A model generated the notes under the pieces. That model was given only the letters and a program-made list of their open reading frames with translations, searched no databases and had not been told where the DNA came from. A stretch of DNA of 64,000 nt from Candidatus Omnitrophota bacterium (GTDB taxonomy: Bacteria > Acidobacteriota > Aminicenantia > UBA2199): assembly GCA_050258455.1 (NCBI GenBank), contig JBLMYT010000061.1, forward strand, positions 41,049 through 105,048, written 5' to 3'. Below are positions 17,383-17,732 of this stretch, one piece after another; position 1 is the first letter of the stretch, and each line of letters begins with the position of its first letter. Made by a program: the position numbers and the translations under genes.

Positions 17383-17552
17383 TTGGGATTAAATCGATAA
17401 ACTCATTTTAGAAATTGCGCCAGCAATTCTCATTCTGTCCCCAACCCGAAAACCACATCGAACACACGGGCAGACACGCAGGTCTGCCCCTACAGAAAAT
17501 AAACCAAATTATTGGTGTTATATCACGCGGGACGGTTCGGAATTTTTCCGTA

Positions 17553-17583
17553 GGGCGCACCCATGTGTGCGCCCCATTTTTTT
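17553..17583 (+). terminator. Rho-independent-like terminator (hairpin + T7) after paralog 2
   Basis: GGGCGCAC-ccatgt-GTGCGCCC followed by CATTTTTTT. Confidence 0.55.
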
Positions 17584-17635
17584 CATGTACCTCTACTTTT
17601 CCAAGATTCGAATTTCTGTTTGAGCCTATCATTGA

Positions 17636-17664
17636 TTGAAAACCATTTCATGATGTGGTATACT
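17636..17664 (+). promoter_or_regulatory. Near-consensus sigma-70 promoter carried by the composite repeat, upstream of the second NRPS gene
   Basis: TTGAAA (17636-17641), 17 nt, TATACT (17659-17664). The ATG is at 17733. Confidence 0.6.
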
Positions 17665-17732
17665 GGCATCTGTGGCGATCCCATTGATAAAAATCAAGAA
17701 TACTTCGGTTTTAATTACATTGGAGAATTCAA

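Follow-up and report, generated by a model that had tools for sequence, protein, structure and literature searches.

A short transposon whose ends lie at a fixed distance from promoters, and a duplicated gene-family promoter probably captured by an NRPS gene

Introduction

The described elements closest to the repeat family of this study are the promoter-bearing MITEs such as Correia (CREE/NEMIS). Both are short, non-coding, multi-copy and intergenic and have terminal inverted repeats; both are found immediately before genes, fold into hairpins and affect transcription units. The terminal repeat of Correia is 26 nt long and its target duplication is TA, whereas the family at this locus has terminal repeats of 17 nt and a target duplication of 9 bp. 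A Correia-type element holds its -35 and -10 boxes inside and takes them along when it moves; here, in contrast, both boxes lie outside the terminal repeat and differ at every locus, and what stays constant is their distance from the element. Because its promoter is external, our element lacks the property that defines the Correia type. Passages of a 2024 review of prokaryotic MITEs list internal promoters in Correia, MITEAba12, BrickBuilt, QMITE1 and SonMITE_1, as well as MITEs with IHF sites and RNase III sites, and where that review deals with promoters, target sites and Correia elements it mentions no fixed-distance link to external promoters (PMC10969869).

Transposable elements can also act on promoters that they do not carry whole, as in the activation of fucAO and glpFK by IS5 and in hybrid promoters built on an outward -35 box of the IS1, IS2 or ISAba1 type (PMC11894529, PMC2753651, PMC9330008). 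As at our locus, the element inserts just upstream of a promoter region, and one copy of our family forms a hybrid promoter of this kind. IS activation, however, is rare, selected and confined to particular loci, whereas in our family the same exact register, that is, one distance from element end to -35 box, recurs at dozens of copies in several species, beside pre-existing consensus promoters. The copies at our locus also leave the native -35 box intact.

Position relative to promoters governs the integration of yeast Ty elements: Ty3 integrates at Pol III start sites and Ty1 upstream of tRNA genes. The MITE superfamily considered here resembles them in lying at a near-fixed distance from a promoter element, independently of the sequence around it. 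Ty elements are eukaryotic LTR retroelements with transcription-factor tethering, whereas the targeting proposed here is read from genomic positions alone. We know of no bacterial transposons that choose their sites by promoter position.

Two further systems bear on the locus. Promoter capture by tandem duplication reportedly took place at rnk-citT in the Cit+ lineage of long-term evolution in E. coli. There, as we propose for a promoter (P3) and an NRPS gene (NRPS2) below, local duplication put the promoter of one gene before a gene without its own; our case differs in that it is deduced from sequence only, in an uncultured bacterium, and in that a MITE with a terminator-like hairpin travels along. 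The interior of the MITE recalls REP/BIME and REPIN repeats, since its two GC hairpins belong to families of hundreds of copies, but REPs are without the 17-nt terminal repeats and have no fixed promoter register.

Here we describe a locus in a bacterium labelled Candidatus Omnitrophota, within a stretch of 64,000 nt that we call the window. The genome is a 6.27-Mb metagenome-assembled draft in 140 contigs. A preliminary description of the window had read the locus as a composite, Correia-like repeat that delivers one promoter to three consecutive genes.

Results

Five copies of one repeat family, MITE-A to MITE-E, lie between 11.4 and 17.7 kb of the window. Full copies had been listed at 12009-12150, 15511-15630 and 17421-17670. 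All of these are present, with element parts at 12010-12098, 15511-15577 and 17421-17618. The copy at 11447-11529, which had been called truncated, exists as well, but it is an internally deleted form of 82 nt that keeps both terminal repeats. The fifth copy (13897-14056) had been missed and is 96% identical to 17461-17618. The features of the locus, all on the forward strand except where noted, are as follows.

MITE-A, 11447-11528, + strand: internally deleted to 82 nt, both terminal repeats kept (CAGCAATTCGCATTCTG ... CAAAATGCGAATTGTTG), one fused hairpin
Tandem array, 11531-11990, no strand assigned: period of 21/22 bp, between MITE-A and MITE-B; context, outside the promoter module
MITE-B, 12010-12098, + strand: deletion derivative of 89 nt that keeps both terminal repeats and has one hairpin; the right repeat is the local variant CAAGATGCGAATTCCTG
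P1, 12099-12150, + strand: 18-nt linker, -35 box TTGAAA at 12117-12122, 17-nt spacer, TG and -10 box TATACT at 12140-12145
Gene A, 12173-13897, + strand: AAA-ATPase_like (PF09820) and PDDEXK_9 (PF08011), 574 aa
MITE-C, 13897-14056, + strand: long copy, 5'-truncated, with the right repeat at its end; a promoter does not come next
Gene B, 14231-15508, + strand: AAA_14 and DUF4143 ATPase, between both duplicated units
MITE-D, 15511-15577, + strand: copy without the left end, with the internal deletion junction of MITE-B and the right repeat CAAGATGCGAATTCCTG
P2, 15578-15630, + strand: 17-nt linker, -35 box TTGAAA at 15595-15600, TG and -10 box TATACT at 15618-15623
Gene A', 15667-17382, + strand: paralog of gene A with 90% aa identity; PF09820 and PF08011
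MITE-E, 17421-17618, + strand: full-length copy of 198 nt; terminal repeats occupy 17421-17437 and 17602-17618; two hairpins
P3, 17619-17678, + strand: 17-nt linker, -35 box TTGAAA at 17636-17641, TG and -10 box TATACT at 17659-17664
NRPS2 leader, 17679-17735, + strand: not related to gene A; GGAG at 17722-17725, start codon ATG at 17733

MITE-C and MITE-E represent the long form, and MITE-A and MITE-B are internally deleted with both ends present. The interior had been said to hold one or two hairpins, which agrees with our reading of one in the short copies and two in the long ones. In MITE-C a terminator-like hairpin (13990-14011) is followed by T8, and the second hairpin of MITE-E (17553-17574) is followed by T7, giving a terminator-like site; this run of T7-8 is a local variant of these two copies, and the consensus element has GCATTCTGTTC there. 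The right repeat of MITE-E is a unique T-rich variant. No ORF of at least 80 aa lies within the MITE copies of the window, and Rfam gave no match at E<=1 across positions 10500-18000. The flanks of 11447-11528, 12010-12098 and 17421-17618 show no clear direct repeat, the best pair being TTGCGCC and TTTGAGCC.

The repeat had also been said to contain two pairs of mutually inverted segments in an interleaved order, a-b...a'-b'. One of these holds: the a pair is the terminal inverted repeat of the element and recurs genome-wide. The b pair is a single exact 8-mer (GATGTGGT/ACCACATC), an equal match to which arises in 5-11% of shuffles, and we rejected it as a second inverted pair since it does not go beyond chance. 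The layout looked interleaved because the b' half sits in the promoter spacer, outside the element.

Searching all contigs of the genome by BLAST with the window copies showed a dispersed family. It has 12 two-ended copies, 80-298 bp in length, and about 38 loci overall. When nine full-length copies were aligned with 70-nt flanks, homology started at CAGCAATTCGCATTTTG, stopped at CAAAATGCGAATTGCTG and was lost directly outside CAG...CTG. These two sequences are the terminal inverted repeats, 17 nt long and perfect in several copies. The terminal 16-mer, with at most one mismatch, has 32 matches in this genome versus 0 for the reversed control. A full copy folds into a rod (-56.7 kcal/mol, z = -4.0), and its two internal GC hairpins are members of REP-like families that number hundreds of copies in this genome; the first of these hairpins recurs in other genomes of the genus. 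The dispersed unit is thus a non-coding transposon of about 198 bp with two embedded REP-like hairpins and many deletion derivatives.

Target duplications are found in several members of the family. A 9-bp duplication (CCGATTCTC) flanks the copy on contig C55, and the corresponding pair on C21 matches at 9/10 positions; both copies stand in register with a promoter. Another 9-bp duplication (CGATAAATC) flanks a copy in a related genome (G003, L070) that is off the modal register. All three copies examined (3/3) of a related 143-nt element in G087, a distant family, have 9-bp duplications too. In the family at large, most two-ended copies are without one. Terminal repeats, small size, copy number, non-coding sequence and family-wide target duplication identify the window element as a MITE. 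Of the proposed likeness to a Correia-type promoter-bearing MITE, the mobile element therefore stands; the promoter inside it does not, as it is external.

No autonomous IS or transposase with matching terminal repeats was found in this genome or in the inner flanks of the relatives' copies, where inspection of the translations listed gave no transposase-like ORF. The left end of the MITE had no match in metagenome contigs. An element of 697 bp (C59:10833-11529) has near-identical repeats, contains no coding sequence and is filled with TTGACTAA repeats. Related elements also stand at contig ends with their interiors unassembled, and related repeats break nine contigs. Those ending in CAAAAGAAGAATTGCTG interrupt C12, C33, C38, C81, C91, C92, C103 and C127, and a transposase would most probably lie in their interiors.

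The promoter motif itself, TTGAAA-17-TATACT, is confirmed at all three reported sites (12117-12145, 15595-15623 and 17636-17664), each with a TG extension. In a promoter scan P1, P2 and P3 each score 10/12 matches plus TG, as sigma-70-type promoters with an extended -10 box. From the end of the -10 box to the start codon (12173, 15667 and 17733) the distances are 27, 43 and 68 nt; the preliminary description had given 28-70 nt. It is also correct that three consecutive genes have near-identical, near-consensus promoters that adjoin the repeat, with 17-18 nt between the end of the element (...CTG) and the -35 box at each of P1-P3.

If the promoter were cargo of a composite mobile cassette, delivered to the three genes by transposition, it would be expected to accompany the element elsewhere. 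MITEs with internal promoters do exist, as listed in the review passages cited above (PMC10969869), and the three promoter copies adjoin the right terminal repeat in one register. However, the 6.27-Mb genome has the 52-nt promoter module nowhere but at these three sites, 40 related genomes have 0 matches to it, and a degenerate 27-mer of the promoter has 0 matches in species-representative genomes and in metagenome contigs. The promoter follows none of the other eight aligned full-length copies of the MITE. Even within the window, MITE-C has the right repeat of the promoter-bearing copies followed by unrelated DNA, and a degenerate promoter looked for after it was not found. The promoter is homologous to promoters of a gene family that stand without any MITE (below), and derived variants are common to the local copies, which would for this reason have arisen by copying rather than by independent insertion. 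A genome-wide census of the cassette had been proposed, and a cassette confined to this locus named in advance as an outcome that would count against delivery; the census places the promoter part at this locus only. Delivery of the promoter as cargo is thus very improbable, and the TTGAAA-17-TGnTATACT promoter is not part of the MITE. Nor do the window copies use the MITE end as the source of a -35 box in a hybrid promoter, since each has its own TTGAAA 17-18 nt outside. The sole hybrid of that kind is at C40:16763-16821, where TTGCTA of the terminal repeat serves as -35 (TTGCTA-17-TATAAT).

The source of P1-P3 is found in the family to which gene A belongs. This genome has about 14 close paralogs of gene A (62-69% aa identity) and dozens of distant ones, and the gene family is expanded in other species of the genus too. 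A homologous promoter, ATTGyyAAT..-17-TGyTATAaT..CGGTGAA, lies upstream of 14/14 close paralogs. The family upstream block reads ATTGyyAATGATTTT, 17-nt spacing, TGyTATAAT, ..ATCGGTGAAA.. and ATG, and P1-P3 align to it column by column. We built a profile from this block and searched it genome-wide. It matched P1 at E=1e-6, P2 at E=5e-7 and P3 at E=4e-7, and P3 was the only match at E<1e-3 without a family gene behind it. Ranked next are one family gene that sits at the end of a contig and a weak promoter of generic type. The family promoter also stands before homologs in five further species (G001-G005; e.g. ..ATTTGCAAATCAT..ATATGCTATACTTGnACCGGTGAAC..ATG), and most family promoters homologous to P1-P3 are without a MITE. 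Since a homologous promoter precedes all close paralogs and occurs in other species, P1-P3 are the native, vertically inherited promoter of this multi-copy PDDEXK_9/AAA-ATPase gene family.

A MITE lies within about 200 nt upstream of 7/14 close paralogs. With the window pair counted once, this makes 6 independent cases in 13 versus about 0.13 expected (p about 6e-9), and we attribute the association to insertion into pre-existing promoters. Filled and empty paralog promoters can be compared directly on contigs C12 and C133, where homology is lost exactly at the element end. Independent in-register insertions precede family promoters on C61, at C71:8491, on C12 and on contig C45 of the relative G001. 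Gene A and its flanking MITEs were also considered as a composite transposon, which was rejected because the paralogs have no consistent 3' flank.

Within the window, both hexamers and the TG are invariant in P1-P3, against a difference of about 14% in the neighbouring terminal repeat and linker. The P2 and P3 cores match at 38/40 positions, and the linkers of P1, P2 and P3, from terminal repeat to -35, are mutually homologous. Because hexamers and TG are identical beside flanks that are about 14% different, the comparison weakly suggests that the promoter is under constraint.

The register extends well beyond the window. The terminal 17-mer was first met again in a relative (G001:C45) at the same distance from the -35 box of a family promoter, and across the superfamily it reads CAAAATG(A/C)GAATTGCTG. 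A pattern search with the 16-mer across the genus, which returned zero control matches, gave the following counts.

G000 (this genome): 32 copies
G001: 25 copies
G004: 12 copies
G005: 9 copies
G003: 6 copies
G009 (second genus): 2 copies

The 16-mer ends at least five different internal-sequence families in the genus, some with a second repeat 150-175 nt away. The TTG of a -35 box begins exactly 18-19 nt after the 16-mer at 40-48% of the element ends, which number more than 100 and come from at least five species (p about 1e-26). At the 58 distinct 16-mer sites in the relatives' census, TTG stands at index 18 in 24/58 ends versus about 1.1 at other indices (p=2e-26), with a TATAAT-like majority 17 nt after the -35. 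Promoters matching at 9/12 positions or better are found at offset 18 in 15/58 of these ends, the control rate being 0.0012 per offset (p below 1e-15 even at a ten-fold higher background). This genome, with the window contig excluded, has TTG at index 18 or 19 in 15/31 ends, and a second local family ending in CAAAAGAAGAATTGCTG has it at index 19 in 6/21. P1-P3 fit the same register: 16-mer, G, 17 or 18 nt, -35. REP hairpin controls have no peak of this kind, and the related MITE in G087 has no promoter register. The association of element ends with a fixed promoter register is therefore statistically secure. Linkers, spacers and downstream genes are unrelated between loci and the distance alone is constant, and for this reason we conclude that the element does not carry the promoters.

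The most likely cause of this register would be that insertion is directed to a 9-bp target, which lies about 8 nt upstream of the -35 box. More specifically, and tentatively, the superfamily may integrate at a fixed distance from sigma-70-type promoters, either through bound RNA polymerase or sigma or by direct recognition of TTGAC(A/T). The register would have another origin if the 17-mer were primarily a cis-regulatory site, bound by an activator or a transposase-derived regulator and spread by MITEs whose copies persist mainly when in register. The three window genes, with about 40% of the element-flanked genes, would then form a regulon. In this register the 17-mer would reach from about -69 to -53 with its centre near -61, where activators classically bind. 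The 17-mer is also perfectly conserved over at least five internal-sequence families and across species, and several solo 17-mers lie in divergent intergenic or promoter regions. On the other hand, the 17-mer is not palindromic, the downstream genes look functionally diverse, and keeping 40-48% of copies at one exact nucleotide needs very strong selection. The recent insertions on C55 and C21, with their target duplications and perfect terminal repeats, are already in register, so filtering after insertion is not needed to account for it. A primarily regulatory origin is thus rather doubtful, and we rate targeting as the more likely cause. Against targeting alone stand the position and the solo copies of the 17-mer, the G087 element with its lack of a promoter register, and the transposase search, which found none. 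By eye, the 17-mer did not match a sigma-54 promoter, an IHF site or a marbox.

We now return to the window and to NRPS2. Genes A and A' contain two 300-nt stretches with identities of 92% and 96%, MITE-C and MITE-E differ at one position along a common stretch of 88 nt, and MITE-B and MITE-D have one deletion junction in common. The right-repeat variant CAAGATGCGAATTCCT occurs on this contig only, among the two-mismatch matches listed. Given the shared variant and junctions, the homologous linkers and the identity of genes and MITEs, we infer that all local MITE/promoter junctions come from one insertion, which was probably copied within a unit of MITE, promoter, gene and MITE.

P3 departs from the other two promoters downstream. 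Its homology to the family promoter ends near 17678, about 14 nt after the -10 box, and the NRPS2 leader comes next. Local alignments for a remnant of a third gene A after P3 were no better than shuffles. The predicted transcription start of P3 is near 17671. NRPS2 is an intact frame of 2713 aa with GGAG 8 nt before its ATG, and the promoter scan found no other promoter-like site on the + strand in 17665-17733. Because a terminator-like hairpin in the upstream MITE precedes P3, its distance to the -35 box being 62 nt, P3 probably drives NRPS2. Searches with the N-terminus of NRPS2 gave no ortholog above 48% identity and no orthologous NRPS locus in 40 relatives, and only matches of about 25-30% (Xenorhabdus) in species-representative genomes.

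Two readings would deprive P3 of this role. The first keeps the same structural history and makes P3 an inert relic, with NRPS2 transcribed from elsewhere or not at all. It sits poorly with the intact -35, -10 and TG of P3 beside a terminal repeat and linker that have diverged by about 14%, with the terminator-like hairpin upstream, with the lack of another candidate promoter in the scanned interval and with the intact NRPS2 frame and its GGAG. We consider an inert P3 unlikely. The second is an assembly artefact, a mis-join at the near-identical MITE-C and MITE-E that would mean P3 is not truly upstream of NRPS2. The draft state of the genome (140 contigs), the contigs broken by related elements and the 88-nt stretch shared by MITE-C and MITE-E all give room for such an error. 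However, the sequence from the right repeat of MITE-E through P3 to the NRPS2 leader is unique, a swap within the part shared by MITE-C and MITE-E would not move P3, and the exact repeats of P2 and P3 are at most 19 nt long. A mis-join of this kind has very little probability. The sole DNA run, a shallow sediment metagenome, yields short contigs that speak neither for nor against the window junctions.

Discussion

We propose that a single MITE inserted 17 bp upstream of the -35 box of one gene-family member, at the position usual for this superfamily. The segment from the MITE end through promoter and gene A to the MITE downstream would then have been amplified locally, giving P1 with A and P2 with A'. 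A further unit may have been broken about 14 nt after the -10 box and joined to the NRPS2 leader, leaving P3; its gene could have been lost when a third unit was deleted, by unequal crossover between MITEs or at the edge of an 11-kb island. In the resulting arrangement the second hairpin of MITE-E and its T-run would terminate transcription coming from A', and P3 would restart it near 17671 and drive NRPS2. We hold this history as a whole, from MITE landing through local amplification to capture of P3 by NRPS2, to be probable. What had appeared as co-wiring of NRPS2 by a mobile promoter would accordingly be, judging from the sequence comparisons, the capture of a duplicated promoter from a neighbouring gene family.

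Full-text searches of the literature on promoter-directed target choice in bacteria gave IS5-type activation and eukaryotic work only, which suggests that the fixed register is undescribed as far as we could find. If the superfamily does integrate at a fixed distance from sigma-70-type promoters, it would be a bacterial counterpart of the promoter-tethered integration of yeast Ty elements, and it would have placed a hairpin/terminator module and a 17-mer near -61 before dozens of genes. The register would represent a form of target selection that is new or else a new route by which a regulatory site spreads, and either reading is of interest for work on transposition and on how gene regulation evolves.

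At the locus itself, a history in which a family promoter was copied locally and an orphan copy recruited to an NRPS gene takes the place of the mobile cassette. NRPS2 has been cut from its upstream partner by the 11-kb island, and its expression now has a testable prediction.

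Promoters at element ends

Outside the window, at C40:16763-16821 of the same genome (G000), the -35 box of one promoter of the PDDEXK_9/AAA-ATPase family is directly replaced by the right terminal repeat of the MITE. The sequence reads GAATTGCTAATGATTTTTTCATATGTTATAAT, giving a TTGCTA-17-TATAAT arrangement, and this is a hybrid promoter whose -35 is supplied by the element end. At C97:14041-14130, one CAAAAGAAGAATTGCTG end stands in register with a TTGACA box (offset 18), and the stretch downstream (GGTCCCTTAGCTCAACTGGCAGAGC...) resembles a tRNA gene.

Genes at C30:138621-139827 and on C133 downstream of 53367 adjoin a solo terminal repeat and a family paralog. 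Their N-terminus is of the MYLAPLNYDRFFKKVF type, or MLIANPMYDVVFKYMM in the C133 copy, and they look like putative transposase-nucleases of the Rpn/PDDEXK_2 type.

Most family promoters, for example that at C30:39525-39568, have their -35 region lying within a palindrome, TCATTGTCAATGA, which is a possible operator. The three TTGAAA-17-TATACT promoters of the window (P1-P3) have lost this palindrome and read CCATTGATTTGAAAA instead. In two family promoters (C12:34040-34101 and C133:55110-55170) the spacer/-10 block is tandemly duplicated, with TCACTATGYTATMAT repeated, which produces two candidate -10 boxes.

Terminator-like copies and tandem arrays

After hairpin 2, the local MITE variant at window positions 13990-14021 and 17553-17584 carries CCCCATTTTTTT(T), as opposed to the genome-wide consensus CCCGCATTCTGTTC. 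Thus only the copies downstream of the two PDDEXK_9 genes resemble intrinsic terminators.

Within window positions 11447-12098, a 21/22-bp tandem array (11531-11990) is flanked by two short MITE derivatives, one on each side. Arrays of similar period adjoin other family paralogs, upstream of C131:115845 and C30:134177 and downstream of C101:7421, and the CAAAAGAAG-ended elements at C111:95624-96153 and C123:25389-26103 contain arrays with a different period.

Related elements

In the "same phylum" sample, which covers about 80 families, complete genomes of 4-8 Mb are numerous; this seems odd for Omnitrophota, the label attached to the genome, and makes that assignment questionable. G087 belongs to a distant family within this phylum, and its 143-nt MITE, bounded by CAGCAATTCTCAGTTTG repeats, lies at three sites:

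C7:111246-111388, copy of the 143-nt MITE
C8:173901-174043, copy of the 143-nt MITE
C37:47914-48056, copy of the 143-nt MITE

This MITE has clean 9-bp target duplications (TCAATCCTC, ATCAATCCT and AAGACATAG), and shows no promoter register.

G000 itself has a second element family, with perfect 17-nt repeats (CAGCAATTCTTCTTTTG) that match the MITE repeat at 15/17 positions:

C59:10833-11529, sole complete copy, 697 bp, non-coding

The interior of this copy holds at least 10 TTGACTAA repeats. Identical 103-120-nt ends of the family occur at contig ends on C12, C33, C38, C46, C81, C91, C92, C103 and C127; their presence at so many contig ends implies that a longer multi-copy element, possibly the autonomous partner, was left unassembled.
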